This document shows positions 600 through 28,966 of a stretch of DNA of 35,711 nt, piece after piece. The stretch covers positions 1-35,711 of the forward strand of contig JACOTS010000134.1 of the NCBI GenBank assembly GCA_016178265.1, written 5' to 3'. The DNA comes from Candidatus Melainabacteria bacterium. Lineage in GTDB: Bacteria > Cyanobacteriota > Vampirovibrionia > 2-02-FULL-35-15. The position numbers and the translations under genes are program-made. The notes under the pieces are model-generated. The model was not told where the DNA came from. It did no database searches and saw only the letters and a list, made by a program, of their open reading frames with translations. How positions within the stretch are numbered: position 1 is the first letter of the stretch; the number at the start of each line of letters is the position of its first letter.

Positions 600-3340
600 T
601 TCCCTAGCCATTTGCTAAATCTAGAAGCAAGATCTAAAACAAAATCCAGAGAAAATATCCCTTTTTGGTTTCTTGTAGAATTATTTGTGTTCCCTAATTT
701 GTTTTTTTCAGCAAACCATTTCATAAACTCTTCTACATTGCCTTTGTACTTCTCTACAAGTATTTTCTTAAAGAGCATAGGTTCAGACCCTGCTTTAAAT
801 ATTTCAATTTTATAAGGGGTATCTAAGACATGCTCACATTTAATGGTTATTTCTTCACCGCCTGCTTTTTTAACTTTTACGTCAACATCTCTTTTATCTG
901 GATCTAGATTATCTAAGCCTTGAATTGAAATCATATCAGTTGGATCAAATTTTGTTCTATCACTTGGATTTTTAAAAGTAAGATAAAGAAGACCTTGTTC
1001 AATGGCATTTTCCCTGTGAATAGGTGCATAGCTCTCTGCAATGGCAATCCTGGTTCTTAAATGTCTTGGAATAAAGGCTGCTGCTTCTCTGGAGCTACCT
1101 GAGCCAAAGAGCTTTCCGCCAACCATTATAGAACCGTTATGCTTTCCTTTGTATTCTTTGGCAAGGTTATAGTAGTGCTGTGGATCTTTCCCTTCCCTTA
1201 GAGCAATACTTTCAAAAAAGCCATGCTCAAGCTCAAGGAGATTTCCTCTTTTAGGAATATATTTTTGTCCTGCTTTAGATAAGTCGTCAGTGGTTACGTT
1301 GTCTCCTAGTACAAGTAAAACAGGCAGATTTTCAATCTTGCCTGGTGTATCATACATATCGCCTGGAAGAGGTGCAATTGTACTACCGTCATATTTAACT
1401 TCTATGTCTTTTGCTTTATCTTTTGGGGCAGGAAGAACAAAAGCAGGCCTTACGCCAGAGGGATCATTAAAGTTATTTGACACAACAGGAGTGAGTCTTG
1501 CCTCAGCAGTTGGGTTTGAAAGCTTTAGCTTAACTGTTTTTCCACCTTCATCTTTTGTAATAAATGCTCTTTCTTTCGGATCATATGCATCTAATCTGCC
1601 GCAAGCAGCAAGATAAACTACAACTCCTGGTGCAGCAAGATAAACTTGATCTATATCGCTACCGGATCTTCCGGTGAAATTTCTATTAAATGATCTGACA
1701 GATGCAGTATCAGGGTTAGGCGCAAATCCCATACCAATACAAGGACCACAAGCACTGTCAAGTAAAATAAGGTGCCCTTCCCTAATAAAATCCTGAATAG
1801 TTTTATTTTCTTGGACAGAAAGCCACCCATCACGAGAACCATAGGTGACACTTACAGGCACAGAATTTACCCTATCTACTTTATGTTTTGCAAGCTGAAC
1901 ATTAGCCCAAAGAGCTGCTTCTATATCGTCTTTGCCAGAGTGGGTGCAACTGCCTATACTTCCTGAACCAATGTCCAGACTAAGATTTCTCTTGTCATAT
2001 TTCTTTTTCATGTCTAACTCTTGCATTGCAAAATTGATTAAAGTTTGATCCGGAGTTCTTCTTAGCACTTGTTTTGAATTTGCTTTAACTAATTTTTCTA
2101 CTTTTGATTTATCAACTTTCCCTTCTGTTAAAAAATCTGTGTGATGTGCCAAGAGATCCTCATTTATGAATTTAAGTACAAGAGGAATCTCATCCAAATA
2201 AAAAACATTTTTAGGATTACCAGGTAAAGCTAAAGCAGGATGAAGCTCTTCTGACAAATTGTACTCAAGTACCTTGTCATAGTATTTTTTAGGATCTTTT
2301 TTAACTTCAGAATCAGGATTGAAATCATCAAGATGTGCTCTAACCCAATTGGCAAGCTCTTTTCTATCCCTTGACTCTAAATATTCTGCTACTTGTTCAT
2401 CTGGAGGGAAAAGCCCTGTTCCCATACCCCCGTCAACCAGTGAATTAGTAATAGAACTCCTTCCAACAACAGAAACCGAATGAACACCTTCTCCAAAAAA
2501 TTCAATATAACTCCCATTCCCCTCATTTCCAAAAAGCCTTATTATATCCCTGTTTAAAAGCTGAACAATTTGTTTTGGTTCTATTCCAAGAGGAAGTGAT
2601 CCTTTAAGATGAACACCAATAATTGGATTTCTGTCAACAGGCATAGGGAGATCAGCAACAAGAGATTTTGCTATGCTCCATCCGCCTTTTCCAATTGCAA
2701 ACATTCCCATTCCGCCGCCTGTTGGGGTGTGTGAGTCAGCACCAAATAATATTCCACCTGGAATATCAAAATATTCATCACTTACACGGTGACATATTCC
2801 ATTGCCTGGAAGTGAAAAGATAATCCCTCTTTTGCTTGCACTTGTCCCTAAGAACTTAATTCCTTCTTTATCCTGAATAATAGCAGCTTCCATGCCATGA
2901 TCAACTTTTATATTGTGGTCGTAGTATAAAACAGTAAGAGTATTTGTTTGTTCTTTTCCAAGCATGTTAAATAAAAGCTCAGCTTGAAGCAAAAGAAGCT
3001 TTCCTGTAGCATCTTGAATAAGCAAAAGATCTGGTTTTAGATAAACAATAGAATCTTTTTTATTTGGATCTCCTGCCTGCAAGTGGGCATACCATATTTT
3101 TTCCGTTGCTGTAAGAGGTCTTTTAACGGACTTGGCATGGCTAGATTCGCTAAAGACAGGTGGTCTTGCGTTCTTTACCTTCACAACAAAATTATTATCC
3201 TCTGGTGTGTTTGGATAACCTTGAAGCTCTTTTCTTGGGTCATAGACAATTGGTTTCGGAGGATTTGAAATAATAGGCAAAGAAAGTGAAACTTTCATTT
3301 TTTTGTCCTTTTTGTTTTTAGCTGTTTCACTATTGTACAT
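596..3340 (-). CDS. aconitate hydratase family protein (divergent)
   Basis: QDATG, DH, GICH, GADSHTP, IGSCT, ACGPCIG (three Fe-S Cys), SFNRNFTGR and GSGSSRE motifs; AGGAG upstream. Confidence 0.9.
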   Translation of the reverse strand: MYNSETAKNKKDKKMKVSLSLPIISNPPKPIVYDPRKELQGYPNTPEDNNFVVKVKNARPPVFSESSHAKSVKRPLTATEKIWYAHLQAGDPNKKDSIVYLKPDLLLIQDATGKLLLLQAELLFNMLGKEQTNTLTVLYYDHNIKVDHGMEAAIIQDKEGIKFLGTSASKRGIIFSLPGNGICHRVSDEYFDIPGGILFGADSHTPTGGGMGMFAIGKGGWSIAKSLVADLPMPVDRNPIIGVHLKGSLPLGIEPKQIVQLLNRDIIRLFGNEGNGSYIEFFGEGVHSVSVVGRSSITNSLVDGGMGTGLFPPDEQVAEYLESRDRKELANWVRAHLDDFNPDSEVKKDPKKYYDKVLEYNLSEELHPALALPGNPKNVFYLDEIPLVLKFINEDLLAHHTDFLTEGKVDKSKVEKLVKANSKQVLRRTPDQTLINFAMQELDMKKKYDKRNLSLDIGSGSIGSCTHSGKDDIEAALWANVQLAKHKVDRVNSVPVSVTYGSRDGWLSVQENKTIQDFIREGHLILLDSACGPCIGMGFAPNPDTASVRSFNRNFTGRSGSDIDQVYLAAPGVVVYLAACGRLDAYDPKERAFITKDEGGKTVKLKLSNPTAEARLTPVVSNNFNDPSGVRPAFVLPAPKDKAKDIEVKYDGSTIAPLPGDMYDTPGKIENLPVLLVLGDNVTTDDLSKAGQKYIPKRGNLLELEHGFFESIALREGKDPQHYYNLAKEYKGKHNGSIMVGGKLFGSGSSREAAAFIPRHLRTRIAIAESYAPIHRENAIEQGLLYLTFKNPSDRTKFDPTDMISIQGLDNLDPDKRDVDVKVKKAGGEEITIKCEHVLDTPYKIEIFKAGSEPMLFKKILVEKYKGNVEEFMKWFAEKNKLGNTNNSTRNQKGIFSLDFVLDLASRFSKWLGN

Positions 3341-4142: not shown

Positions 4143-4204
4143 ATGAAAATATTTTAATTATACTTTTTATGAGGAATAGATGCGGTACCAAGTTAAAGGA
4201 AAAA

Positions 4205-4286
4205 TAAGCTTTTTGTCCGATTTATTCGGCAAAAAGCGTCGAGGATAAGGAGCGAGTTGAGCGTTAGCGCGAAACGAGCGTTATAG
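4205..4286 (+). repeat. two-hairpin GA-tandem element, copy A (5' of nanE)
   Basis: taagctttttgtccgatttattcggcaaaaagcgtcg...gcGAgttGAgcgttagcgcGAaacGAgcgttatag, immediately followed by the nanE ATG. Confidence 0.9.
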
Positions 4287-4976
4287 ATGATCGAAATTTT
4301 AAGAAATAAAGTTATTGTATCTGTTCAAGCACAGGATAATGAACCATTAAATAAACCAGAGCACCTTCTTGCAATAAGCGAATCTGTTATTAATGGAGGA
4401 GCTGGTGGGCTTAGGCTTTGTGGAGAAGGAAATATTAAGTTTATAAAGGACAAAGTTAATGTTCCAATAATTGGACTTACAAAAATACAACCAACCCCAA
4501 TAAATTTTTTAGATGTGGTTTTTATCACAACCTCATTAAAGGATGCAAGGAAACTTTTGGATTTAGGGATTGAATGCATTGCAATTGATGGAACAGGCAG
4601 ATTGCGCTTGGATGGCTCAACACTTGACGATCAAATTAAACTAATTAAAAAAGAAAAAAGACTGGTTATGGCAGATGTTGCTACTTTTGAGGATGGAATG
4701 AGTGCAGCAGAAAAAGGAGCAGATCTAATTTCTACTACCTTATCAGGTTATACAAAAGAAACTAGATATAAAGCAAATGAAGGACCGGATTTTAAGCTTT
4801 TAGAAGAACTCATGGAAGAATGTCCTGTGCCCGTGATATTAGAAGGACGTATTTGGAATCCTGAAGATGTTAAAACTGCTTTTGAAATAGGAGCTTTTGC
4901 TGTAATTATTGGTACTGCAATAACCCGTCCCCATTTAATTACAAAGAGATTTGTTAGTTTGGTGCCGCAAACTTAA
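4287..4976 (+). CDS. nanE: N-acetylmannosamine-6-phosphate 2-epimerase
   Basis: IVSVQA, VPIIGLTK, MADVAT, TTLSGYT, EGRIWNPE and GTAITRP motifs. Confidence 0.93.
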   Translation: MIEILRNKVIVSVQAQDNEPLNKPEHLLAISESVINGGAGGLRLCGEGNIKFIKDKVNVPIIGLTKIQPTPINFLDVVFITTSLKDARKLLDLGIECIAIDGTGRLRLDGSTLDDQIKLIKKEKRLVMADVATFEDGMSAAEKGADLISTTLSGYTKETRYKANEGPDFKLLEELMEECPVPVILEGRIWNPEDVKTAFEIGAFAVIIGTAITRPHLITKRFVSLVPQT

Positions 4977-13797: not shown

Positions 13798-14847
13798 ATG
13801 AAATTATTTCGCCGCTCATTGTCCATCGTTTTAATTTTTGGACTGATCTTCTGCATGGCCTTCTTATTAAATTTTACAATTGCCCAGGAAGATACTGGTT
13901 ATTATGCACCTGATTATCCAACAACAGACAGTAATCCTGGACATGTTGGTGATCATGGAGATGGTAGCGATTCAAGTCATGATGGCCGCGGTGATACTGA
14001 TACTGATGGCGGTGGTGATACTGATACTGACGGCGGTGGTGATACTGATACTGATGGTGGTGGAGGATTCCCTGGCGGAGGTGGACTTCCCGGTGGCGGT
14101 GGACTTCCCGGCGGCGGTGGATTCCCTGGCGGTGGTGGACTTCCCGGTGGCGGCGGATTACCTGGCGGCGGTGGCGGACTTCCTCCTGGCGGTGGTGGCC
14201 CAATTCCAACTGGCTGTGTAAGTGATTCAGAGTGTAGTCCAGATTGTTGTGTAACTGGTGTATGTGTACCATGTGGTGGACCTGGAGGTACTGGTCCTAG
14301 TGGACCAACTTGTGGAGATGGAATTTGTGAATCAGGAGAAGATGCAACCATGTGCCCAGGTGATTGTGAGACCTGTGGAAACGGATCATGCGGACCTGCT
14401 GAAAACCCGTGTACTTGTGAAGCTGATTGTGGATCTCCTTGCAGTACTGTAAGCGCAGGGACATGCGATCCTTCTACTTGCACAGGTTGTAATGAATGTC
14501 AGACTGTAGATTATCCTGATGCGTGTGGTGGTACATGTCCTATGCAACAATGTGTACCTATTACCCCACCAGCTTGTGGAGGCGGTGATTATAATACCTG
14601 CACAACAGAAACATTAGATTATACTACGTGTACTTGTGTATCTAATACTTATGGAACCCCTGAAACTTGTCCAAATGGTACAACATGTTGCTCAGCAGGT
14701 GGTGTAAGTTGTTGTCCTTCAGATCCTGTTACTACCTCTGGTGGATTTGGAACACAAGGAGGAGGCGGCGGTGGCGATCCTTGTGCAAGCGTATGTTCCG
14801 GAAGTGCATTTAGTAGAGCATGTCAAAGGTGCCTTGCTGCTCCATAG
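13798..14847 (+). CDS. secreted Gly/Pro-repeat, Cys-rich protein
   Basis: signal peptide; AAGGAG RBS; CGDGICESGE..CPGDC motif resembling myxobacterial Cys-rich repeats. Confidence 0.8.
   Translation: MKLFRRSLSIVLIFGLIFCMAFLLNFTIAQEDTGYYAPDYPTTDSNPGHVGDHGDGSDSSHDGRGDTDTDGGGDTDTDGGGDTDTDGGGGFPGGGGLPGGGGLPGGGGFPGGGGLPGGGGLPGGGGGLPPGGGGPIPTGCVSDSECSPDCCVTGVCVPCGGPGGTGPSGPTCGDGICESGEDATMCPGDCETCGNGSCGPAENPCTCEADCGSPCSTVSAGTCDPSTCTGCNECQTVDYPDACGGTCPMQQCVPITPPACGGGDYNTCTTETLDYTTCTCVSNTYGTPETCPNGTTCCSAGGVSCCPSDPVTTSGGFGTQGGGGGGDPCASVCSGSAFSRACQRCLAAP
13990..14199 (+). repeat. coding tandem repeats (GDTDTDG x3; GGG[FL]PG x~6)
   Basis: 21-bp and 18-bp tandem units visible in the DNA. Confidence 0.85.
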
Positions 14848-16503: not shown

Positions 16504-19500
16504 ATGCCAAGTATTACTTCTGTTAATCACACACTAGGAAATGGTAAAGGATTAGTTACACAAAATGATGTTACATCTGAAGATAAAGTAAGAGGCAGCT
16601 CAAAACAAAGTAATAAAGGGCTTTCAAGAGCAACGAGTTTTGTTGCAAAAGCTGTTGCATCACTGGCACTTCTTATGCCACTTATTGATGCTTCTAGTGT
16701 AGATGCTGCAAATAATCCTGAAAGAGAAAAAGCAGTAGCAAAGTTTGGCGATGATTCATGGGCTGCATTAAGAGATGCTTTAAAGCAAGATAAATTAAAA
16801 GATCTTCCAAATGCAAGATCACTTTGGAACAATATAAAAGCAGTTCTTCATGTATCAGATGATACAAAGATAGAAGCAGTTGATGCACTTAGAAAAGAGC
16901 TTATATCAACAGGGATTAAAAATTCAAATATACCTCCGGAAATAGTTCATGAGGCAATTTATACAACCTCAGTTGTGGCACAAAGCATAAATAAAGATCT
17001 TGCTGCTAACAATAAAAAGCTAGCTGAGCTTGATAAAAAGATGGCTGAACTGGCAACTAAATCAGAAGGAATTACAAAAAATGGTGGTCAGCTTTCAAAA
17101 GAAATGACTGATGAAAAAGCTAAATTCGATAGCGACAAAGCAACACTAATAGCTGAAAATAAAACACTGGAAGGAAGACTAGCAAAAATTATAGAGCCTG
17201 TAGTTCCATTTATGGGCAAAATTATAGTTGATGTTACCAAAGAAGGTGGTAAAGAAGAAAGATTTCTTGTCCGCCCATCTGAAGTAGGAAGATTTTATGG
17301 AGGAGATGACCTATTCGCTAGCGGCCCTAGCTATGAAAAAGTTAAAGTCTATAACAGCAATAACTTTGAAAATCTTGCTGCTTATACACTTGCACAAGCA
17401 GGGGAAAAAGGATTCTTTGAAAAAGTTGGAAGAGAACTCCTTACAAGTGGAAATGATGAAGCAAGAAGAGATGAATTTTTTAACATCTTTAAGTACACAG
17501 GATCGGATGTTACCCTTCCAAAAGATGTAACAGAAAAATCAAAAGAATGGATCTATGGAAGAAAACAAATGGAAGCCTTCAATAAGGGGGATGCAGCAGC
17601 AGCAGAACCAGCAAGCTCTAATACAGATATAGAGTTTGAGATTATAGAGCCTGACAATGCTAAAGATAAAGCTCCTGTAGACAAAGGAGTTAAGGACTCG
17701 CAACCGGTGCCTCCAGGAAGTACTGTTATTGTGCTTCCACCAGGAACTGAAATTGGAACTGCTAAAAAGCATCCAACACCTGATGTTCCTCGTGGTGCTA
17801 GCTATGGTTCAATTGAAGAGCTAAGAAAGATAAATGAGAAGCTTGTAAAACCTCTTCTTCCATACCCATACAGCAAATCAGCAAGTGATCAAGACTTTAT
17901 TGCTGATAATGTTTTAATGCTTGCAAAGCATGGAGATGAGCTTGCACTTCCAGCTTGTGCGCAATGGTTTGCAATTAAGAGCTATTCGGAAGGTTCCAGC
18001 GGTGGAGGTTTCTTTAGCTCTGCTTCACCAGCAGATATGAAGATGCTTGAAGCACTTTCAATTATGGCTCAAAAAGATGAAGTTGCATTTACAGTACTTG
18101 AAAGATACATAGGATCATTTCCAAAACAATTTGAGAGAACCTTTCTTTATGGTACCTATGCTCTTTGGGACTCACCTCAAAAAAGAGCAGGGGCTGAGAT
18201 GATAAAAGCACTCAATCTTCATAAAGATAATGCAAAAAATCTTGTTACTGCACTATCTAATAAAGAAACAAAACTTATTTGGCCTGAACCTATGTCAGAT
18301 ACTGATGTAGAACATGTAAATAAGCTAAGAGATGCAGGAAGAAGTGTAGCTTTAATGATCATGGCTTTTGATGATAAAGCACACAACTTTACTCCTTATC
18401 TTAGAGACATTGTAAAAAATGACTTTGCTAAAGATATGGAAAGATTTGTTTCTATGATTGGGGTAGCACTTGCAAAAGACAAAGAGTCTGTTGAACCTCT
18501 TTTGAATATTGCTATCGATGAAACAAAACCTATGGGAATGCGTGAGCTTGCTCTTGATGCGGTTCTTTATATTGACAGACCTGATCTTATTCCGGCTGCA
18601 ATAAGAGAAAAAGAAGCAGAAGGATCTCCATTTACTGGAGCAAAACTTAGGCACTTCTTCCCTAATCTTATTGAAAGAACAAAGCCAGAAACTGAAACAG
18701 ATTTCTGTGCTGCTATTGAAGGAAAAAATCCTTTTCAAGCAAGGATTAAAGCTCAATATGACAGGTGGCTTACACTTGAAAATGCAGCCATTGAAAGTGC
18801 AAAAGCAAAAGGTGGTGCGCCTGGAACAATTACCGATGCTCAGAAACTAGGGGCATTTATTGAACTTAGAGAACGTGAGCTTGGTGGAACAGGCATGGCA
18901 CTTTCTGGAAGAGCAGGGGATGCAACATTTAGCAGTAAGTATGTTAAACCAATGGTTAACTACCTTAAAGATCACAGAGATATAAAGAAACCTCTTTATT
19001 GGGGAATTGCATACTCTATGATGGATGTGCTTGGTAAATCAAATGCTACCGAGGCAGCACCACTGCTTAGAGACATGGCAACTTATCCAGAGATTTATGT
19101 CCAAGATAATTCACGTGGACAAGGATTCTTTGGGTTTTTTGATGTGCTCTTTAATAATTTTGAGATGTCACTTATCAAAGCAAATGCAATTAAAAACTTA
19201 GGTGGTGTAGTTGACCTAAAAAATCCTGCATCTGATGAGGCAAAAGTGCTTCACTTAGTTGCACTTAAAGATTCTTCGCTTGACTACAGATGGATGGCAC
19301 AAAAAGGGCAAAGAGAGCTTGCAAGAAGATATGACAGTGCAATGGCTGGTTTAAAACCAGGCGATGCAACATTTGATGAGCTTTCTAAAGCACGTGCTGC
19401 TCATGCCAGTGAAATGGTTGGGCAAATGCAGTATCATGCAGAGGGACGTGAATACGAAACCCAGATGCGCCTTTTTGATCTTAGAGAGCAGTTTATGCTT

Positions 19501-20739
19501 GCAAAAGGTGCTGATATGATGGGCGGAACAAAAGATCTTGTTATGCTTGCTCATGAAGCATCTAAGAAAGATGCTAAAGCACCTGTCATTCGTACAGTTA
19601 TGCATGCTCTATTTTCAAATGGAAAAGGAGTGGATGAGATAAAAGCTCTTGGATTTCCAGCTGACGTTGCTGACAATGCATGCGCAATGTATAAGATGGT
19701 AAATGAACAAGAGTACTGGCTTGGCAAAAAAGAAGACAGGAAATTTACAGGTGAAGGAGTAGAAGTAGCAATAGTTGACGGTGGCTATGTATATCCTCTA
19801 GATATTAAAGGTTTTGAAGGACTAAAAGAACGTATTGTATATCCTGAAAAACTAGTTACATGGTCAGACCTTACAACTTGGCTTGACTTACATCCTACAA
19901 TGGTAGCTTCTACTTTGCATAAAGCTGCACCAGCAAGTGCAAGTGATAAGATTCACTCTTATAGCTTCATGGCAAGTATTCCTGAAACACCGTTTAGACC
20001 ATGGGGTACTCAGGATTCAGCGTTGTATGCGCTTGAAGATATTGCACAAAATAAAATAGCAGGCGAGTCGAATGTCGAGCTCATTAACTATTCATGGGGA
20101 TATATTAACTTTATCCTTGCGAATGAAAAAATGAGATCTGACTTTATTGATATTGCTTCTGCATACATGGAAACGTTAAGTAAAATAAACACCATGCATA
20201 CAGTTGCTGCAGGAAATGAGCATGGAGCATTCCCAGCATTTGTAAGATATGGTTCAGTTGGTGAGTTAAATGTGCTTGGGCTTAGAATGGACAGCAACAA
20301 TAAATTCACAAAGCCTGATGGTGTGTTTTATGCATCAGCTATGGATAAGTATGCAGACAGGCTTGCTGAGTTTACATCTAAGCAAGATCCACTTCGAGCA
20401 GCAGAAGCAATAACAATGCTTAGCTTCCAAGGTGTTCATGTACTAGTTCCTTATCCTCTTGACGGAGCTTGGGATGTACAACCTGTAAATGGAACTTCAT
20501 TTGCAGCACCTAATAACGAAGCAGTGCTTGCATGGGGTCTTAGTGCTCGAAAGAAACTAGGGCTTCCTGAACTCTCAGCTTCTGATTGGGAAACACTCCT
20601 TCAAAGGTCAAACAAACACTTTCCACAAAGGGAAAATTGGGAAGGTGGGAAATACTTTGATGCTACCCAATTTATGAAAGATGCAACAACCTTTAAAGCT
20701 GATGTTAAACAACCAGCGGTTGCAGAGGCTAATAAATAG
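16504..20739 (+). CDS. large exported protein with C-terminal S8 (subtilisin-like) peptidase domain
   Basis: VAIVDGG (Asp), LHPTMVAS (His), AAGNE (oxyanion Asn), GTSFAAP (Ser); helical N-terminal region; GGAGG RBS. Confidence 0.8.
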   Translation: MPSITSVNHTLGNGKGLVTQNDVTSEDKVRGSSKQSNKGLSRATSFVAKAVASLALLMPLIDASSVDAANNPEREKAVAKFGDDSWAALRDALKQDKLKDLPNARSLWNNIKAVLHVSDDTKIEAVDALRKELISTGIKNSNIPPEIVHEAIYTTSVVAQSINKDLAANNKKLAELDKKMAELATKSEGITKNGGQLSKEMTDEKAKFDSDKATLIAENKTLEGRLAKIIEPVVPFMGKIIVDVTKEGGKEERFLVRPSEVGRFYGGDDLFASGPSYEKVKVYNSNNFENLAAYTLAQAGEKGFFEKVGRELLTSGNDEARRDEFFNIFKYTGSDVTLPKDVTEKSKEWIYGRKQMEAFNKGDAAAAEPASSNTDIEFEIIEPDNAKDKAPVDKGVKDSQPVPPGSTVIVLPPGTEIGTAKKHPTPDVPRGASYGSIEELRKINEKLVKPLLPYPYSKSASDQDFIADNVLMLAKHGDELALPACAQWFAIKSYSEGSSGGGFFSSASPADMKMLEALSIMAQKDEVAFTVLERYIGSFPKQFERTFLYGTYALWDSPQKRAGAEMIKALNLHKDNAKNLVTALSNKETKLIWPEPMSDTDVEHVNKLRDAGRSVALMIMAFDDKAHNFTPYLRDIVKNDFAKDMERFVSMIGVALAKDKESVEPLLNIAIDETKPMGMRELALDAVLYIDRPDLIPAAIREKEAEGSPFTGAKLRHFFPNLIERTKPETETDFCAAIEGKNPFQARIKAQYDRWLTLENAAIESAKAKGGAPGTITDAQKLGAFIELRERELGGTGMALSGRAGDATFSSKYVKPMVNYLKDHRDIKKPLYWGIAYSMMDVLGKSNATEAAPLLRDMATYPEIYVQDNSRGQGFFGFFDVLFNNFEMSLIKANAIKNLGGVVDLKNPASDEAKVLHLVALKDSSLDYRWMAQKGQRELARRYDSAMAGLKPGDATFDELSKARAAHASEMVGQMQYHAEGREYETQMRLFDLREQFMLAKGADMMGGTKDLVMLAHEASKKDAKAPVIRTVMHALFSNGKGVDEIKALGFPADVADNACAMYKMVNEQEYWLGKKEDRKFTGEGVEVAIVDGGYVYPLDIKGFEGLKERIVYPEKLVTWSDLTTWLDLHPTMVASTLHKAAPASASDKIHSYSFMASIPETPFRPWGTQDSALYALEDIAQNKIAGESNVELINYSWGYINFILANEKMRSDFIDIASAYMETLSKINTMHTVAAGNEHGAFPAFVRYGSVGELNVLGLRMDSNNKFTKPDGVFYASAMDKYADRLAEFTSKQDPLRAAEAITMLSFQGVHVLVPYPLDGAWDVQPVNGTSFAAPNNEAVLAWGLSARKKLGLPELSASDWETLLQRSNKHFPQRENWEGGKYFDATQFMKDATTFKADVKQPAVAEANK

Positions 20740-20759
20740 CAGAAGACAAGCTGAACTTT

Positions 20760-20791
20760 AGGGTCAGGTTTAAGTTAAATCTGACCCTTTT
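20760..20791 (+). terminator. intrinsic terminator
   Basis: AGGGTCAGGTTTA-agt-TAAATCTGACCCT followed by Ts. Confidence 0.75.
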
Positions 20792-20861
20792 AATTATTTG
20801 TAGGGTTAACATTGGTTTCTAATATTTGTTTAGGGAATGCTTAATTTATAAGGGTGTTTCT

Positions 20862-21110
20862 ATGAAAGCTGTATTGTTGGCTTTAATTGTGTGCATGGGG
20901 CCTTACTCCTGTTCTTATGCTGCTACAGAGGACTCCTTAACAGGTTTTGTTAATAATTCTTTGCAAGGAATCACAGGAAGTGTAACATTTGAAAATACTG
21001 ATTCTGCAACAGAAGGAGCATACGAATATTTTCTTAATGATTATCATTATCTAGACAGTGATGTTAAGTTGGATCTAGATCCCGCTTCTACAGAGAATTA
21101 CCCAAAATAG
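20862..21110 (+). CDS. small secreted hypothetical protein
   Basis: MKAVLLALIVC..SYA signal-like N-terminus. Confidence 0.6.
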   Translation: MKAVLLALIVCMGPYSCSYAATEDSLTGFVNNSLQGITGSVTFENTDSATEGAYEYFLNDYHYLDSDVKLDLDPASTENYPK

Positions 21111-21111
21111 C

Positions 21112-21159
21112 TTATTTCTTCTTTCCAGTGATTATGGGTTCTGCTACGCTAGCTGGGAC
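21112..21159 (-). pseudogene. displaced duplicate of the fusA 3' end ([15 protein letters not shown])
   Basis: 48 bp encoding the same 15 aa plus stop as 21246-21293, with 8 third-position differences. Confidence 0.95.
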
Positions 21160-21248
21160 CTTGTTTTTATACCGCTCGCCTCGTGCGAACACTCGGCTCG
21201 CTTGTAAAGTCACGACGCATTTTGCCAAGTGAATTGGACAAAATGCTA
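21160..21248 (-). repeat. two-hairpin GA-tandem element, copy B (3' of fusA)
   Basis: minus strand TAGcattttgtccaattcacttggcaaaatgcgtcg...gcGAgccGAgtgttcgcacGAggcGAgcggtataaaaacaa. Confidence 0.9.
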
Positions 21249-23324
21249 TTTCTTTTTGCCAGTTATAATAGGCTCAGCTACGCTAGCTGGGACTTCTTCG
21301 TATGCGGCAAATTCCATAGTAAATGTCCCTTGACCTTTGGTTCTATTTCTTATGTCTGTTGCATATCCAAACATTTCAGATAAAGGCACCTTGCCGTTTA
21401 CTTTTGAAAGTCCTCTTTCTGTAGTCATTCCTTCAACACGTCCGCGCCTTGAAGAAACATCCCCAATCACATCACCCATAAACTCTTCCGGGACCTCAAT
21501 TTCAAGATTCATTACAGGTTCCAAAAGAGTTGGTTTTGCTTTCATAAAACCTTCTTTAAATGCCATAGAACCTGCAATCTGAAATGCCATATCTGAAGAA
21601 TCTACATCATGGAAACTTCCATCATGAAGTGTAATTCTAAGATCAATTACAGGATACCCTGCAAGCACCCCACCTGCCATAGCTTCTTTAACTCCTTTTT
21701 CAACCGCAGGAATATATTCTTTTGGAATAATACCACCTACAATTTTGTTTACAAACTCAAATCCTGAGCTTCTTTCAAGCGGTTCCACGTCAATAACAAC
21801 GTGACCATATTGACCACGACCGCCAGATTGCCTGATATATTTTCCTTCTTGAGTAACTCTGGCTTTGCAGGTTTCACGGTATGCAACTTGTGGTTTACCT
21901 ACATTAGCCTCCACTTTAAACTCTCTTAAGAGCCTATCTACAAGAATTTCAAGATGAAGTTCTCCCATTCCTGAAATAATTGTTTGCCCTGTTTCATGAT
22001 CCACATGCACTTTAAAGGTAGGATCTTCTTCTGCAAGTTTTTGAAGTGAAAGCCCAATTTTTTCTTGATCTGCCTTTGTTTTTGGTTCAATTGCAACCGA
22101 TATAACAGGATCAGGGATATGAAGAGACTCAAGAATAATTGGCTTTTTCTCATCGCAAAGAGTATCTCCTGTAGAGGTATCTTTTAAACCAACTACAGCA
22201 CAAATATCTCCTGCATATACTTCGTCTACTTCTTTTCTATCATCAGCCTGTAGTTTTACTATACGACTAATTCTTTCTTTTGCGTCCTTGCTTGCATTAT
22301 AAATATAGCTTCCTGCCTTCAGGCAACCGCTATATACCCTAATAAAGGTCAGTCTTCCAACAAAAGGATCTGTCATTATTTTAAATGCAAGTGCTGCAAA
22401 AGGTTCATTATCATCTGACTTACGTTGTATTTCAGATCCATCTTTTAAAATCCCTTTTATAGCTTCAACCTCAGTTGGGTTTGGCAAGTAATCTACTACT
22501 GCATCAAGAAGCTGTTGAACACCTTTATTTTTAAAAGCAGATCCACATGTAATTGGAATTATCTGTAATTTGCATACAGCATTGTGAAGTGCTTGCTTGA
22601 GCTCAGGAACAGGAATTTCTTTACCCTCTAAATATCTGCTCATTAAATCATCATTGGTTTCAACTATGGCTTCTACAAGTTTTTCTCTTAATTCTTTTGC
22701 TTTGTCCATAAGCTCAGTAGGAACATCAACCGTGTCAAATTTTCTTCCCATCTTATCGGTTTCATCGTAGATGTATGCTTCCATCTCAAGAAGGTTTACG
22801 ACACCTTTTAACTGATCTTCAGATCCTACCGGGATTTGAATTGGGTGTGCATTGACTTTAATTTCATTAATTACTTGACTTACAACCTTGAAAAAGTCGG
22901 CACCTGTTCTATCCAATTTGTTTACAAAAATAATCCTAGGTACTTTATATCTGTCAGCTTGTTTCCAAACAGTTTTTGTTTGAGGTTGTACCCCGCCTAC
23001 GCCGCAAAGAACAATTACAACGCCGTCAAGCACTCTCATAGAACGCTCAACTTCAATGGTAAAGTCAACGTGACCAGGGGTATCAATTAAGTTTATATAC
23101 TTATCTTTCCATGTGGTTGAAATAGCTGCAGCAGTTATGGTAATTCCTCTTTCTTTTTCTTGTGCCATCCAGTCTGTAACTGTAGTACCTTCATGGACCT
23201 CGCCAATCTTATGAACAAGTCCTGAGTAAAATAAAAACCTTTCTGTGGTTGTGGTCTTTCCTGCATCAATATGAGCAGCAATTCCCATGTTAATTGTTTT
23301 ATCTAATGGTATTTGACGTGGCAC
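21246..23324 (-). CDS. fusA: elongation factor G
   Basis: [26 protein letters not shown] and GMGELHL motifs; GTG start with AAGGAG RBS. Confidence 0.98.
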
Positions 23325-23337
23325 AATGATCTCCTTT

Positions 23338-23425
23338 TTGTTTTTATAACGCTCGTTTCGCGCGAACGCTCAACTTGCTTTTCCCCTTCGACGCTTTTTG
23401 CTGAGTAAATCAGACAAAAAGCTTA
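23338..23425 (-). repeat. two-hairpin GA-tandem element, copy C (5' of fusA)
   Basis: minus strand taagctttttgtctgatttactcagcaaaaagcgtcg...gcAAgttGAgcgttcgcgcGAaacGAgcgttataaaaacaa, followed by the RBS. Confidence 0.9.
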
Positions 23426-23515
23426 GCTTTATAATAGGATACGGTATAACCCAATAAGTTTCCAAGATATTTTAAATTCTTTTAACATTAGAGATAGCAA
23501 ATAGCATTTAACTAT

Positions 23516-24424
23516 GTGCTATACGATATTATTATAGAAGTGTTTTTTGACTTCTTACAACTGCTTTTGCACTATGGAATAACCATAATTCCTGCCTTTT
23601 TAGTAGCTCTTTTAATCTCAGCAATACTTGTAGAGTTTATACCAGAATGGGTTTATGAACGAATATTAGGGTCAAACCAATTTTTATTTATTTTGCTTGC
23701 AAGTTTTGTCGGAGCATTAATACCTATATGTACATGTGGGATGATCCCACTTGCTGGAAAATTGCATAAAAAAGGAGCTTCGTGGCTTATAGTAGTTGCA
23801 TTTTTAACAGCAGGCAATGCAAGTAGTATAACTTCATTAATTATGACCCTTGTAATGGGCACAGGAATTACATTTGGGAGGTTTGTTTTTGCAGTAATTT
23901 TTGGGCTTTTAGTTTCTTATATTTTTGTATTAATTTTTAAACCTAAAAGTTTGTTGTCAGAAAATGGTGGGCATTCTGATAATATAACAATTTCTAAAAA
24001 GGAAAAAATCACAAATGAGTTTGTAATCCTTGTAAAAAACTTTGGACCATGGGTGATTGCTGCTGTACTTATTGCAGCTTTTATCTCGCTCTTTTTGTCA
24101 TATGAATTTGTAGTTAGCTTTGCAGGGGTTGGAAATACTTTTGCCCCGTTTGTGTTTGGTGTAGTTGGGTTCCCTTTTTATTTTTGCGCAGGAGCAGATA
24201 TTCCAATTAGTAGTGCACTACTGGCAAAAGGTGCAGGGCTTGGAAGCATTTTATCCTTCATGACTGCCTCACCAGGGGTTAATCTTACAACTCTTCTTAT
24301 TTATCAAAAATGGCTTGGGCTTAAAAACTCTATTATTTATTTAATTATTTCTGTTTTGATTTGTGGAATACTTGGAATGAGAGTTAACTTTTTTATGCTT
24401 CCAATTTCGCCATATCCGTTTTAG
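23516..24424 (+). CDS. DUF318/ArsP family permease
   Basis: multiple TM helices; PICTCGMIP and YFCAGADIP motifs. Confidence 0.85.
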   Translation: MLYDIIIEVFFDFLQLLLHYGITIIPAFLVALLISAILVEFIPEWVYERILGSNQFLFILLASFVGALIPICTCGMIPLAGKLHKKGASWLIVVAFLTAGNASSITSLIMTLVMGTGITFGRFVFAVIFGLLVSYIFVLIFKPKSLLSENGGHSDNITISKKEKITNEFVILVKNFGPWVIAAVLIAAFISLFLSYEFVVSFAGVGNTFAPFVFGVVGFPFYFCAGADIPISSALLAKGAGLGSILSFMTASPGVNLTTLLIYQKWLGLKNSIIYLIISVLICGILGMRVNFFMLPISPYPF

Positions 24425-25143
24425 AGGGAGAACACGAGATCAAATGTTTTAATCTCTTTCTTTGCTCTTGTATTTATGTGCTTTTGCAGTAATTTAAGAG
24501 CTCCTCTTTTTGTTTCCATATCGCTATTTGTTTGTATAGTAGGTAAGCCAAGTATATCTAATATTCCATTGGAAATTGATATATGATCAATAGCAAGGCA
24601 TTCATCGCATAAAAGTCCACCAAGGATACTTGAGTAGGGGTAAGTATCCTTGCTTTTAACGATTTCCTTGCTACATGCTACACAGGTTTCAAGCTGTGGT
24701 TTTAGTCCATGAAGGGACAAAAATTGAATAATAAATCTTATAGCTACTGTTTCGGGGGATTTGCTTGTTTGCAATTCATCAAGCATTGAATAAAGAAGTT
24801 CAAAGATATGATTGCTTTCTTCTTCTTCTTCTTGTGCAAAATTGTTAACTATATCCAAAAATAAAATTCCGTAAAATAAAAGATTAGAGCTAGATCTTAG
24901 TTTTGGAAAAGTAGTTATTTGTTCAATGTCACAAAGAGTGTCTAAATTTTTCCCTTTGGCAAATTGAAAAAAAGAGCAATACAAGAGGTCTGTTCTACCA
25001 GAAAATTTCCCACTTGGCTTTTTAGCTCCTTTTGCAATACACCTTACTAAACCGTTTTCTTTGGTATATATGTTAAGTATTTTATCTGCTTCAGATAAGT
25101 TAAAACTTTTTAAGATAATGCCTTGATCATTGTATGAGGGCAT
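24421..25143 (-). CDS. recO: DNA repair protein RecO
   Basis: GIILKS..LSEADKIL, AKGAKK and CxxC...CxxC zinc motifs; ATG 25143 preferred over GTG 25173. Confidence 0.92.
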   Translation of the reverse strand: MPSYNDQGIILKSFNLSEADKILNIYTKENGLVRCIAKGAKKPSGKFSGRTDLLYCSFFQFAKGKNLDTLCDIEQITTFPKLRSSSNLLFYGILFLDIVNNFAQEEEEESNHIFELLYSMLDELQTSKSPETVAIRFIIQFLSLHGLKPQLETCVACSKEIVKSKDTYPYSSILGGLLCDECLAIDHISISNGILDILGLPTIQTNSDMETKRGALKLLQKHINTRAKKEIKTFDLVFSL

Positions 25144-25297
25144 GAATGTAAAGACCAAAAAAAATGCTATCACTTAGAATTTTAAGAGACTTTTACATAT
25201 TTTGCGTTAAAATATAAAGCTTTGATTAATTTAATTCCTAAATAGCCAATAAGTGATTGTAGGATGGTAAGTTGGTTATTATCTAGCTGAGATGGAG

Positions 25298-25335
25298 GAG
25301 CGAGTCGAGTGTTCGCACGAGACGAGCGATTATAA
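25298..25335 (+). repeat. GA-tandem element, copy D (hairpin 2 only, 5' of HTH gene)
   Basis: gagcGAgtcGAgtgttcgcacGAgacGAgcgattataa directly before the ATG. Confidence 0.85.
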
Positions 25336-25662
25336 ATGACAAGTGAAAGAGAAGTTGTTAGGCAAGATGTTCCTCAAGAAGTAGAAGCAGACTTAACTGA
25401 TGAGACAAGAGTTGCTCTAGCACTTTATTTAAAAGTATATTCTGAAGGAAAAGTTACCCCGCAAGGCATTATAGTGCCTGAGTTAAATATTCATAAGCTG
25501 GCACATGCTGCAGAAGTTCCAAACAGGCAAGTAAGCAAAACTTTTGAAAGACTTAGAGGAAAAGGATTTTTAGGAAACCTTCCTTCAGGGCATCTTGTTG
25601 TCAAAAACCTAGAAGAGTTTCAACAATGGTTAGTTAGCCAAGGCGCATCAATTGATGTGTAA
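25336..25662 (+). CDS. small winged-HTH (Crp-type) DNA-binding protein
   Basis: LNIHKLAHAAEVPNRQVSKTFERLRGKGFL..LVVKNLEE resembles a Crp C-terminal HTH. Confidence 0.65.
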   Translation: MTSEREVVRQDVPQEVEADLTDETRVALALYLKVYSEGKVTPQGIIVPELNIHKLAHAAEVPNRQVSKTFERLRGKGFLGNLPSGHLVVKNLEEFQQWLVSQGASIDV

Positions 25663-25745
25663 GCTTTTGTCCAACTTGTTTGGCAAAAGCGTCGAGGATC
25701 AAAGAAGCGAGTTGAGTGTTCGCACGAAACGAGCGGTATAAAAGT
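25660..25745 (+). repeat. two-hairpin GA-tandem element, copy E (3' of HTH gene)
   Basis: TAAgcttttgtccaacttgtttggcaaaagcgtcg...gcGAgttGAgtgttcgcacGAaacGAgcggtataa. Confidence 0.9.
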
Positions 25746-25804
25746 AGTTTCAACAATGGTTAGTTAGCCAAGGCGCATCAATTGACGTTTAAGCTTTTGT
25801 CCAA
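25746..25804 (+). pseudogene. duplicate of the HTH gene 3' end plus the start of another element copy
   Basis: 59-bp direct repeat of 25616-25674 with 2 synonymous differences. Confidence 0.93.
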
Positions 25805-25813
25805 ATTAAAAAA

Positions 25814-26038
25814 CTATTCTGCTGCTTCTTCTTCTCGAGGTACGCATGTACCGTAATCAGTACCTTCTTCTATTTCACATTCAAATTTATCAGGATTACA
25901 ACAAGGATCCCAACTAGGTGGATCTCCGCATACGCCTCCTTCAACAGCACAAGAGCAAAGCCCATTTTGAATTGGCAGTGCGGCCAGGCAAAAGGCAAGA
26001 GGTATAAGGACTATTAGTTTCTTTATAAAATTGTTCAT
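25814..26038 (-). CDS. small secreted Cys-rich (knottin-like) peptide
   Basis: signal peptide followed by C-X6-C-X8-CC-X6-C-X10-C. Confidence 0.7.
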   Translation of the reverse strand: MNNFIKKLIVLIPLAFCLAALPIQNGLCSCAVEGGVCGDPPSWDPCCNPDKFECEIEEGTDYGTCVPREEEAAE

Positions 26039-26197
26039 AAGTTTCCTACAGAGTTTTACAGCTAGTTATCTTATACCCACTGCCTGTGACGCAAAGCAAC
26101 AAAAATCCTAATATGAGTTATTTTTAACCTAAATTCCTCTATTTACAGTACCTGTTTAAATTGAAGTTAACATTGAATTCTAAGGGGAATCCCTATG

Positions 26198-27259
26198 TCA
26201 GGCTATGACAGAGGTATTGAAAAGTTCTTTTATTTCTTTTTTATAGTCCCCTTCAACTATCCCTTTTTCTGTGATTATGCCTTTAATATATTCTCTAGAG
26301 GTAATGTCAAAAGCAGGATTAAAAGCCTGTGTAGAAGGGTGGCATATTAATCCTTCATTAATTAGTGTTACTTCCTTTTCATCTCTATTTTCAATAGGAA
26401 TTTTGTCTCCTGTTTCAATACTTAAATCAAAAGTGGAAAGAGGTGCTGCTATATAAAATGGTATGTTGTTTTCTTTTGCAAGTACTGCAAGTTGGTAGGT
26501 ACCTATTTTATTTGCTGTATCACCGTTGCTTGCAATTCTATCTGCTCCAGCAATAACAATATCAATAAATCCTTTTTTCATAAGGTATCCGCAAGCAGTA
26601 TCTGAAATTAATGTGCAATTTATTCCATTTTCAATACACTCGAAAGTTGTTAATTTGGCCCCTTGTTGTCTGGGCCTGGTTTCGCTTGCAAAAACTTTTA
26701 TTGATGGATCATATTGATGTGCAGTTAAAATAATCCCAAAAGCTGTTCCAATGCCTCCGGTTGCAAGTGCCCCTGTATTGCAGATAGTAAGAATACCTGC
26801 TCCTTTTGGAATAACTTTAGAACCATATCTGCCTATATTTGCACACCTTTGCGCATCATCTTCATGAATCCAAATAGCACGTTTTTTTAAGGCAGTAATT
26901 ATTTCAAGTGTGTCATCTAACGAGGCAACTTCATGTAACATTAAATCTACTGCCCATCTCAAGTTAATTGCGGTTGGCCTTGCGTTTTTAATTTCCTCAC
27001 CAATTGCTTTAAGTTTATTGATTAACTTTTTACCTTCAAGTTTTTTGTATTCAAGTGCTGCAAGAAATATGCCATATGCAGCAGCAATTCCTATTAAAGG
27101 AGCACCCCTTACAGACATATTTTTAATTGCACGGGTAACTTCGGTATAAGACCTTGCTTTTATGTACTTTTTAGATAACGGTAATACTCTTTGATCAAGC
27201 AAAGATAATTCATCGTTTTCTAACTTAATAGGTTGAATCTTAGAATTTATCTTTTGCAT
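26198..27259 (-). CDS. mtnA: S-methyl-5-thioribose-1-phosphate isomerase
   Basis: LDQR, VRGAPLIG, RPTAINL, CNTGALAT, ETRP, GADRI and ANKIGTY motifs. Confidence 0.95.
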   Translation of the reverse strand: MQKINSKIQPIKLENDELSLLDQRVLPLSKKYIKARSYTEVTRAIKNMSVRGAPLIGIAAAYGIFLAALEYKKLEGKKLINKLKAIGEEIKNARPTAINLRWAVDLMLHEVASLDDTLEIITALKKRAIWIHEDDAQRCANIGRYGSKVIPKGAGILTICNTGALATGGIGTAFGIILTAHQYDPSIKVFASETRPRQQGAKLTTFECIENGINCTLISDTACGYLMKKGFIDIVIAGADRIASNGDTANKIGTYQLAVLAKENNIPFYIAAPLSTFDLSIETGDKIPIENRDEKEVTLINEGLICHPSTQAFNPAFDITSREYIKGIITEKGIVEGDYKKEIKELFNTSVIA

Positions 27260-28860: not shown

Positions 28861-28966
28861 TAAGGTTTTATCCGATTTATTCGGTAAAATCTTGATAGCA
28901 ATGTTAAGAAGTAGCTAATATATGCACTTTGCAAAACCGGCGAAGCCCATTCGTGGGCGAGCCGGT
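28861..28966 (+). repeat. variant element copy F (hairpin 1 plus a different GA/TTCG hairpin)
   Basis: taaggttttatccgatttattcggtaaaatct and accggcGAAgcccaTTCGtgggcGAgccggt. Confidence 0.7.

Follow-up and report, generated by a model that had tools for sequence, protein, structure and literature searches.

A structured repeat followed by a second copy of the preceding gene's own last codons is found behind the elongation factor gene fusA and behind a helix-turn-helix-like (HTH-like) gene in a stretch of 35,711 nucleotides from a Candidatus Melainabacteria bacterium (assembly GCA_016178265.1, contig JACOTS010000134.1, positions 1 to 35,711 of the forward strand; hereafter the window). The repeat, which we call the E element (copy E being the name of its single copy at 25658-25748), is restricted to one family of groundwater bacteria, and the layout of gene, element and untranslated second end, the latter termed the stub, recurs at further genes of the same genome and of its relatives. 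The two ends of a pair differ almost only synonymously, and at one locus of a relative the stub is the displaced end of the resident allele. The feature is real, recurrent and lineage-specific, and combines a repeat resembling repetitive extragenic palindromic (REP) sequences with a gene-end duplication resembling those at attachment (att) sites. From our point of view, it looks like the scar of a piece made of a "new gene end plus repeat" that was recombined into ordinary genes.

Repeated gene ends at fusA and at the HTH-like gene

At the fusA locus the following features are present:

21246-23324, minus strand: fusA (elongation factor G, 692 aa), with a GTG start and AAGGAG before it
23337-23427, minus strand: element copy C, 5' of fusA, its tail followed by a 15-nt leader with a Shine-Dalgarno sequence
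21160-21250, minus strand: element copy B, between the fusA stop codon (TAG, 21246-21248) and the stub
21112-21159, minus strand: fusA stub, in which the last 15 codons recur untranslated and are closed by TAA
20826-21110, plus strand: convergent 94-aa open reading frame (ORF) without a Pfam match, its stop 2 nt from the end of the fusA stub

Read in the sense of the gene, the order is C, fusA, B and the duplicate of the last 15 codons, and the A-rich tail of copy B (...GGTATAAAAACAAG) directly adjoins the stub. A direct repeat with a period of 134 nt and 85% identity pairs the last 47 nt of fusA (21247-21293) with positions 21113-21159. Both copies are identical over their first 17 nt, and the seven differences within the 15 codons are all synonymous, such that the same 15-residue peptide is specified twice, whereas the stops differ (TAG in fusA vs. 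TAA in the stub). On the plus strand of the window (21140-21172), the first 17 nt of the stub fold into a hairpin of -11 kcal/mol that directly precedes CTTGTTTTTATA, the complement of the E tail, and together they form a terminator-like site for the 94-aa ORF.

The second locus has the corresponding parts on the opposite strand:

25336-25662, plus strand: HTH-like gene, 108 aa, without a Pfam family
25293-25335, plus strand: element copy D, 3' half only (hairpin 2 and tail)
25658-25748, plus strand: element copy E, starting at the TAA of the HTH-like gene
25746-25807, plus strand: HTH stub, with the last 14 codons plus TAA at 25748-25792
25814-26038, minus strand: convergent 74-aa Cys-rich ORF, which is kept beside the HTH gene in related metagenome loci without element or stub

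The HTH-like label derives from Atlas features only, with scores below 0.9, and is to be read as a lead. The tail of copy D adjoins the ATG of the gene and that of copy E (...GGTATAAAAGT) adjoins the stub. Here, 62 nt (25616-25677) recur at 25746-25807 with a period of 130 nt and 95% identity, and the two differences between the end of the gene and the stub are both synonymous. An in-frame TAG just upstream renders the stub untranslatable, and its stop codon is followed by GCTTTTGTCCAA (25793-25804), which equals the first 12 nt of the element, i.e., part of hairpin 1. The preliminary description of this DNA, which had reported the succession of gene, element and recoded last codons at both genes as well as five element copies A-E, is thereby borne out, with the specification that copy D comprises the 3' half only.

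When the HTH gene was compared across 17 metagenome loci, one of them (L011) had the same structure as the locus in the window. The 3' part of its stub is swapped for a short low-complexity stretch, which indicates that stubs also decay, and its live end has codons that the window carries in the stub, so that the HTH pair started out identical at this locus. Locus L020 has a different E sub-family and a stub that is identical to the live end at 31 of 45 positions and starts at the same nucleotide, and in L025 and L026 a neighbouring ORF has a stub of its own. In most of the other loci the stop codon runs straight into the convergent neighbour, with no element and no stub. The empty orthologous sites to which the preliminary description had pointed hence exist among metagenome loci, none of them within one species.

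The E element family and the distribution of stubs

The E element is an intergenic repeat of ~85-130 nt with two hairpins. In an alignment of 44 full copies its parts follow one another in the order TAAGC, hairpin 1 (12 bp with one bulge), CGTCG, a purine-rich spacer, hairpin 2, CGAGCG and a TATAAAA-type tail. The CGTCG after hairpin 1 is nearly invariant, with C-G-T-C (alignment columns 35-38) conserved to at least 90%; hairpin 2 consists of three short helices with two tandem G-A/A-G steps between them and a UUCG or UUAG loop, and 3' of it lies the conserved GAGCG-TATAAAA tail. Both hairpins covary and the E element is a real structured family: 97.9% of the cells across both hairpins are paired and 10 of the 20 pairs are changed on both sides, hairpin 1 taken by itself being 98.1% paired with six covarying pairs. 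If the partners are slid by 1-3 columns, pairing falls to 32-48%. None of 500 shuffles matched the observed percentage paired, the doubly changed cells or the covariation score; the count of doubly changed pairs was equalled in 49 of the 500.

The metagenome-assembled genome (MAG) that holds the window (G000; 1.87 Mb, 184 contigs, 89.5% complete) contains 75 E copies by nhmmer at E<1e-3, besides numerous hairpin-1 copies that stand alone. When a covariance model was derived from the E alignment, it had matches in all 12 genomes of the family, between 12 and 130 in each, and in none of 19 genomes from eight other families of the class, and Rfam 15 gave no match at E<=1 for positions 20000-27000 of the window. 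Sub-families with different hairpin sequences keep the architecture as well as the motifs ACGTCG and GAGCG-TATAAA, and partial copies retain the 3' end and lose a variable length at the 5' side (model positions 27-54 to 83/84). In two strains whose HTH proteins are 99% identical, the element at the same site differs by two compensatory base-pair swaps and the upstream element is complete in one strain and reduced to half its length in the other, from which we conclude that E copies turn over fast. A canonical sigma-70 promoter or an intrinsic terminator within the element was considered, and a simple consensus scan places none in the element copies. One sub-family has, 5' of hairpin 1, a purine-rich module of ~40 nt with repeated GGA (…GGAGATAGGAATTAGGAAATAGGAATCAG…; contigs C2, C17, C19, C35, C142, C144 and C159 of G000), which also parts tandem element copies with a period of ~123 nt and whose GGA repeats presumably resemble CsrA-type binding motifs.

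In a protein-level scan of G000, which looked up to 450 nt downstream of every ORF for a repeat of its C-terminus, seven matches were obtained. Five of them have an E-like element between gene end and stub, namely those of fusA, the HTH-like gene, a ClpC-type ATPase, GlmS and a COX1-family oxidase subunit (named by Pfam, apart from the HTH-like gene, which has no family), and the other two sit in longer tandem repeats. A DNA-level scan added a tRNA-Arg gene; its 3' 49 nt, which extend from the anticodon stem to the 3' end, have an exact repeat 178 nt downstream, on the far side of a variant element. The same protein scan of the whole genome of a relative (G010; 2.21 Mb in 7 contigs), run with a reach of 500 nt and looser match settings, yielded 17 matches, of which 12 lie inside repeat-protein arrays and five have an E-like element; by Pfam the latter belong to a cytochrome c assembly protein, a semialdehyde dehydrogenase, an M15 D-Ala-D-Ala dipeptidase, an 82-codon ORF and GlmS. 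All 10 matches outside tandem or repeat-protein arrays in the two genomes thus have an E-like element with the A-rich tail adjoining the stub, and the association is genome-wide rather than confined to the two loci from which the preliminary description had proposed it. The orientation is constant, with the element tail next to the stub and hairpin 1 directly behind the live end in every case; the inserts between the repeats measure 72-160 nt and consist of the hairpin element only, and the flanking direct repeats are 30-75 nt of the gene's coding end. We conclude that stubs are tied to the element family and are a general phenomenon that goes beyond chance and beyond the window.

Across the family, fusA stubs occur in three of the 12 genomes (G000, G001 and G008, the latter two sharing the junction), glmS stubs in two of the 12 (G000 and G010, at the same codon junction) and M15 peptidase stubs in G010, G011 and G004, again at the same codon junction. 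The M15 gene has no stub in G008, a short C-terminal match in G001 and no match to this query in G005. Stubs of the fusA, glmS, M15 peptidase and HTH genes are accordingly spread over several genera or lineages, and the junction is often shared; among 80 fusA loci from other phyla no stub was found. The fusA flank was read in ten relatives of the family, and each has different DNA 3' of the gene. As a guide to taxonomy fusA was uninformative, since its best matches, at 76-77% identity, belong to mixed phyla; the best outside match is Candidatus Obscuribacter (76%), the nearest Atlas cluster bears the label Melainabacteria, and both are no more than leads. Near the best-scoring E copies of the relatives, no stub was seen in 30 loci (88 kb), and stubs therefore accompany only roughly 1 in 15-20 E copies. 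A 61-nt direct repeat (C147 of G000, 18546-18785; 90% identity, period 179) lies over the apparent starts of two neighbouring small ORFs and has no hairpin element between its copies.

Origin of the duplicated ends

Ten end/stub pairs together contain 63 nucleotide differences and 11 amino-acid changes, seven of which fall on the first one or two codons, where the sequence is junction and tail-derived. When all or half of the differences were placed at random, so few changes were never obtained in 20,000 trials (P<5e-5). Additional pairs of G010 carry 2, 2 and 1 further changes (I/V, F/L, I/M or S/D), and the M15 pair of G004 one (D/E). Translation of the stubs themselves was considered and rejected, as there is the in-frame TAG at the HTH gene, no in-frame start codon in L020 and an in-frame ATG start in only 2 of 15 stubs. 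Since the stubs are not read and amino-acid changes are nonetheless nearly absent, both copies must have been in working genes when they diverged, and stubs are hence former coding ends.

At the semialdehyde dehydrogenase gene of G010 it can also be told which end is the older resident. Its stub is identical to the corresponding ends of two congeners at 38 and 35 of 42 positions and its live end at 32 and 29 of 42; the stub shares the residues D and V with the congeners, runs on into their downstream sequence and is favoured over the live end at informative sites by 7:1 and 6:0 (hand count). The 20-codon window just 5' of the duplicate is 0.90-0.92 identical to the congeners and the last window 0.70-0.74, the congeners being 0.88 identical to each other there. 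A native-like upstream window followed by a divergent last window means that the foreign piece was short, roughly the new end plus the element. At this one locus, the stub is the displaced end of the resident allele, which agrees with the view of the preliminary description that a 3' stub of the old allele survives. The same test on glmS and M15 of G010 gave informative sites of 3:2, 2:2 and 1:2 (hand counts), with no clear side, and at L020, too, neither end was favoured.

The pairs also differ in apparent age. Five of them are 96-100% identical (HTH, clpC, glmS and tRNA-Arg in G000, M15 in G011), and in four of these five the initial 12-30 nt of the element come after the stub, with the break inside hairpin 1 and in three cases at its loop. 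Strongly diverged pairs have no such hairpin-1 remnant (fusA in three genera, L020, L025, and the dehydrogenase and glmS of G010). Several pairs have a block of identity of 14-53 nt on the 5' side and their differences 3' of it; as a rule for all pairs, a 5' clustering of identity was dropped, the mean relative position of 78 differences being 0.56, a weak 3' bias.

The explanation that we favour, with a rough probability of 0.48, is that a short unit consisting of a replacement gene end and an E element was installed and spread by host recombination and that the stub is the previous end. At the roughly five genes per genome where the element is seen between a live gene end and a formerly coding copy of it, a unit made of a copy of the last 10-25 codons and an E element would sit before the previous 3' end. 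The gene would then terminate in the copy brought by the unit, and the old end would be left untranslated between the A-rich tail and the downstream neighbour. The unit would encode no enzyme; host recombination would install it and pass it between related strains and species, using the gene body as left homology and the 30-75-nt stub as a short right arm, and the unit could in this manner enter orthologous sites even where the downstream synteny differs. One could imagine that transfer between diverged lineages produces ends and stubs with synonymous differences only and that transfer between like strains, or birth in place, produces identical pairs, while recombination with insert-free alleles could overwrite a stub with working sequence. 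Repeats of 30-75 nt would also be short enough to avoid frequent RecA-driven collapse, which would explain why only short stubs are seen.

Several observations weigh against this explanation. The same junction in different genera could stem from one old vertical insertion that was homogenised by gene conversion, and recombination through a diverged arm of 30-75 nt is inefficient. Some stubs carry amino-acid changes (COX1 two, the G010 dehydrogenase two, M15 two and the 82-codon ORF one). The tail junction is constant, and microhomology between the 12 nt left of the repeat and the tail, tried as a guide of the junction at 10 loci, was no better than chance (score 10.5 vs. a null mean of 10.5, P=0.50). 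Neither a polymorphism of empty and filled sites within one species nor a same-species genome with an empty site was found. There was likewise no contig that joins a gene body directly to a stub and no circle junction, in a search of contigs only, which drop rare variants, and among the joints listed none skips 21160-21293 or 25678-25807, where rare forms would again escape. Furthermore, G000 has three Phage_integrase (tyrosine recombinase) matches, of which two exceed the Pfam cut-off and resemble Xer proteins in size (311 and 282 aa), and the negative results for other enzymes come from a MAG that is 89.5% complete, while mobile genes often fail to bin.

A second view, which we regard as rather unlikely, is that the unit is a true mobile cassette, i.e., a non-autonomous integrative unit moved by a structure- or site-specific recombinase acting in trans, Xer-like or unbinned. 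Each lineage of units would be dedicated to one gene end, and the recoded end would make integration inside a gene harmless. In line with this, the inserted piece is discrete and short, the body of the G010 dehydrogenase gene being native up to ~20 codons before the stop; the junction repeats across genera at glmS, M15, fusA and the HTH gene; the 5' identity blocks of 14-53 nt with differences 3' of them are arranged as at att cores; the targets include the classic attachment genes glmS and tRNA-Arg, with a tRNA repeat from anticodon stem to 3' end; and tyrosine recombinases are present. On the other hand, the junctions of different target genes have no common core sequence, the recombinases come down to the three matches mentioned above, no integrase lies near any stub, and neither circles nor empty forms were seen in the contigs. 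Carriage by phages was tried and dropped as well, as the hairpin-2 core occurs in no viral contig and four matches to a short sub-family motif turned out to be coding sequence without hairpins.

As for other enzymes, G000 gave no match to RVT_1, Y1_Tnp (PF01797, the HUH/RAYT family), the TnpB zinc ribbon (PF07282) or the IS110 transposase, and one weak resolvase-like stretch within a 902-aa frame. Of the enzymes that the preliminary description had envisaged, neither an HUH/RAYT transposase nor a reverse transcriptase was found in this MAG, and of the Phage_integrase matches none lies near a stub. Its notion of a cassette that inserts at the resident locus fares better in one half, given the displaced end and the discrete unit, than in the other, as no excision product, polymorphism or recombinase was found. 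The far-reaching version appears doubtful to us, namely that enzyme-less units of 130-190 bp, each with a synonymously recoded rescue copy, target the 3' ends of genes both ordinary and essential in different genera and are moved by an unrecognised structure-specific activity at the tail and the hairpin-1 loop; they would then be nature's equivalent of "recoded rescue" gene drives. Should the units be truly mobile, they would be the smallest known elements to carry a rescue copy of their target.

It is improbable, in our opinion, that the element is instead copied into a nicked target in a 3'-anchored fashion, starting at the tail and proceeding to hairpin 1, whether through target-primed reverse transcription or through replicative template switching, with duplication of 30-75 nt and with synonymous divergence arising later through recombinational exchange of the live gene end. 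Such copying would fit the constant tail junction, the partial copies that keep the 3' end and lack variable 5' parts, the position of the A-rich tail next to the downstream repeat copy and the 96-100% identity of the young pairs. However, a reverse transcriptase was not found, none of the inserts is matched by a near-identical donor copy elsewhere in G000, the first 12-30 nt of the element behind the stub in four of the five most alike pairs are unlike a simple target duplication, and each diverged pair would need a second event ending inside ~100 nt. A diversity-generating retroelement was rejected on similar grounds: RVT_1 has no match, the differences include third-position C/T and G/A and are not adenine-specific, and the protein is unchanged.

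Even less credit is due to a tandem duplication of element-gene units, by unequal crossing-over between E copies or by transformation-induced merodiploidy, followed by a deletion that leaves those remnants which are too short for RecA-driven collapse. E copies do flank both fusA and the HTH gene, copy B shares TATAAAAACAA with the leader-side copy C, and transformation with partly repeated fragments is known to produce tandem duplications that repeats delimit (PMC3784515). Nevertheless, one and the same deletion, from just after the tail to 10-25 codons before the stop, would be required at all 18 stub loci, a remnant of the 5' part of a gene was never seen, and copies that are born identical leave the synonymous-only divergence unexplained. 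The sequence shared by B and C, from which the preliminary description had taken B to be the former leader of a second fusA copy, is carried by these two only among the 44 aligned copies but is only an 11-nt match, and that reading of B was not borne out.

A selected functional duplication, in which the last codons carry signals of the neighbour (a terminator or a ribosome-binding region) and insertions survive only with this stretch doubled, seems very improbable. By a reading of the flanks, five of the six stub loci of G000 face a convergent gene, the opposite-strand hairpin of the fusA stub is followed by a T-run complementing the E tail, and the glmS stub of G010 ends 4 nt before the ATG of the next gene. 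Yet an opposite-strand terminator formed by stub and tail fails as a general rule, as it holds at 2 of 11 loci (fusA and tRNA-Arg), and the idea accounts for retention and neither for origin nor for conservation at the codon level.

Regarding the assembly itself, one Logan contig of run X1 holds the downstream gene, the fusA stub and the element tail (20500-21194) and another of run X3, from a different sample, spans 20965-21198 with 2 changed letters, both runs belonging to one study and X1 possibly being the source sample. An artefact of mixed strain variants around a repeat, to which the 184 contigs of the MAG and the breaks of Logan contigs within the element and within the HTH duplicate might point, is scarcely credible, because single contigs in these two runs continue across the tail-to-stub junction, which needs reads containing it, and other genera, assembled independently and including the 7-contig G010, show this architecture too, as do metagenome contigs.

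If a new gene end plus repeat is indeed installed by host recombination, an enzyme-less REP-like repeat would repeatedly rewrite the 3' ends of fusA, glmS, clpC and a tRNA gene harmlessly. The dated scars could then be used as markers of inter-strain recombination in an uncultured lineage, and they would illustrate the way in which compact genomes, whose gene ends overlap the signals of neighbours, are invaded by non-autonomous repeats.

Likeness to known systems

Integrative elements whose insertion leaves the target with a restored 3' end are known from islands in tRNA and tmRNA genes, from e14 or phage 21 in icd and from integrative and conjugative elements and cis-mobilizable elements (ICE/CIME) at fda. 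Here, too, the live gene ends in insert-borne sequence, the displaced end is found as a direct repeat beyond the insert, the differences of the replacement ends are synonymous and the targets are conserved genes (tRNA, glmS, fusA). Unlike in those elements, however, 72-160 nt lie between the repeats, with no integrase or other genes, and one repeat family serves many unrelated targets without a shared core. Integron attC sites are alike in being hairpin-forming, recombination-site-like repeats between genes, with promoterless units at a resident locus, whereas here an intI-attI platform, a cassette array and GTTRRRY boxes are all absent, and the "cargo" is a fragment of the resident gene. Of the three Phage_integrase matches none lies beside a stub and no GTT core is seen at the junctions; IntI-specific models were outside this search.

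Synthetic "recoded rescue" homing drives consist of an insert in an essential gene that carries a recoded gene end, with the original end behind it. The layout is the same, by analogy only, as neither a nuclease nor a guide is known here and nothing points to drive. In homology-facilitated illegitimate recombination (HFIR), one-sided long homology combined with a short or illegitimate join inserts foreign DNA. Known cases of HFIR and of merodiploidy have variable inserts and are usually deletions, whereas the insert described here always ends at the E tail and the join recurs at the same codon across genera.

Bacterial MITEs (miniature inverted-repeat transposable elements) such as Correia/NEMIS, ERIC and RUP are small, non-coding, gene-adjacent repeats that are co-transcribed, form hairpins and sometimes supply gene signals. 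The E element is similarly small, dispersed, hairpin-forming and located beside genes, but its ends (TAAGC... and ...GAGCGGTATAAAA) are not inverted repeats and it has no terminal inverted repeats. No short target duplication of fixed length was noticed around the E copies that were read, without a count, and the flanking repeats are instead 30-75 nt of a gene end. A descent from REPIN/RAYT or from IS200/IS605 (palindrome-associated transposable elements, PATEs) is at odds with the absence of a Y1 HUH transposase or TnpB match in G000.

The CGTC-tagged REPs are short, high-copy intergenic stem-loops near or over stop codons, for which no dedicated transposase is known, with an unpaired CGTC tag at one end, stems of 8-9 bp that start with A-T pairs, and a CCA tail (PMC3733652). 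The E element is likewise a short palindromic stem-loop in many intergenic copies (75 nhmmer matches plus solo hairpins), and a nearly invariant C-G-T-C follows its hairpin 1, which may correspond to the published tag. It differs by a 12-bp stem with a bulge that starts with G-C, by the lack of a CCA tail and by being a composite of two hairpins with a conserved tail and a length of 85-130 nt. The words "duplicat" and "target site" do not occur in the main text of PMC3733652. Among precedents for host recombination, HFIR and the tandem duplication at dispersed repeats that is driven by transformation (PMC3784515) come nearest. A repeat family flanked by recoded gene ends was not found described among the listed titles and abstracts of the open full-text literature, with subscription journals and supplements outside the scope.

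Genomic setting of the element copies

Contexts were counted over the 72 copies in G000 that have an intact 3' end. An ATG lies at -4 to +7 nt from the end of the match in 24 of these, including genes read as those for ribosomal proteins L22 and S10, by their N-termini, and L36, and in another 10 a start codon follows at 10-25 nt, several times with an AGGAG-like motif before it. Three copies adjoin the 5' end of a tRNA on the same strand (0-4 nt), four adjoin the 3' end of a convergent tRNA (1-6 nt), these tRNA contacts being noted on contigs C98, C102, C43 and C144, and three have a stub after the tail. Altogether, an E copy precedes at least 34 genes and 3 tRNAs in G000. Because it precedes dozens of genes, the upstream copies C and D need no special role and are ordinary E copies, so that whole-gene cassettes are not needed, and the proposal of the preliminary description that bracketing upstream copies are part of a cassette falls away.

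The distance from tail to ATG in the 24 copies is too short for a Shine-Dalgarno sequence, which suggests leaderless or Shine-Dalgarno-independent starts directly after a structured element, as judged from spacing; fusA and others keep an AGGAG leader. The element occupies entire intergenic spaces up to the boundaries of RNA genes. A 129-nt version with ~45 extra bases between the hairpins (C17 of G000, 3204-3332) lies between a gene read as tuf and rpsJ, and the element is therefore also present within the ribosomal protein gene cluster.

Two further copies lie in the window:

4203-4293, plus strand: element copy A, full length with hairpin 1, CGTCG, hairpin 2 and GAGCG-TATA tail; the tail overlaps the ATG of the ORF at 4287-4976
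28864-28889, plus strand: a copy consisting of hairpin 1 only

Between the two loci described above, the convergent ORFs 23516-24424 (plus strand) and 24421-25173 (minus strand) overlap by 4 nt. A Logan contig of run X1 departs from the window at 24421 and, after 19 letters of its own, resumes in the hairpin-1 region near 21224; it may represent a variant with an element between these two convergent genes. Lastly, the ORF at 13798-14847 contains tandem repeats of 18 nt and 24 nt that encode units of the types Gly-Gly-Gly-(Leu/Phe)-Pro and Asp-Gly-Gly-Asp-Thr-Asp.

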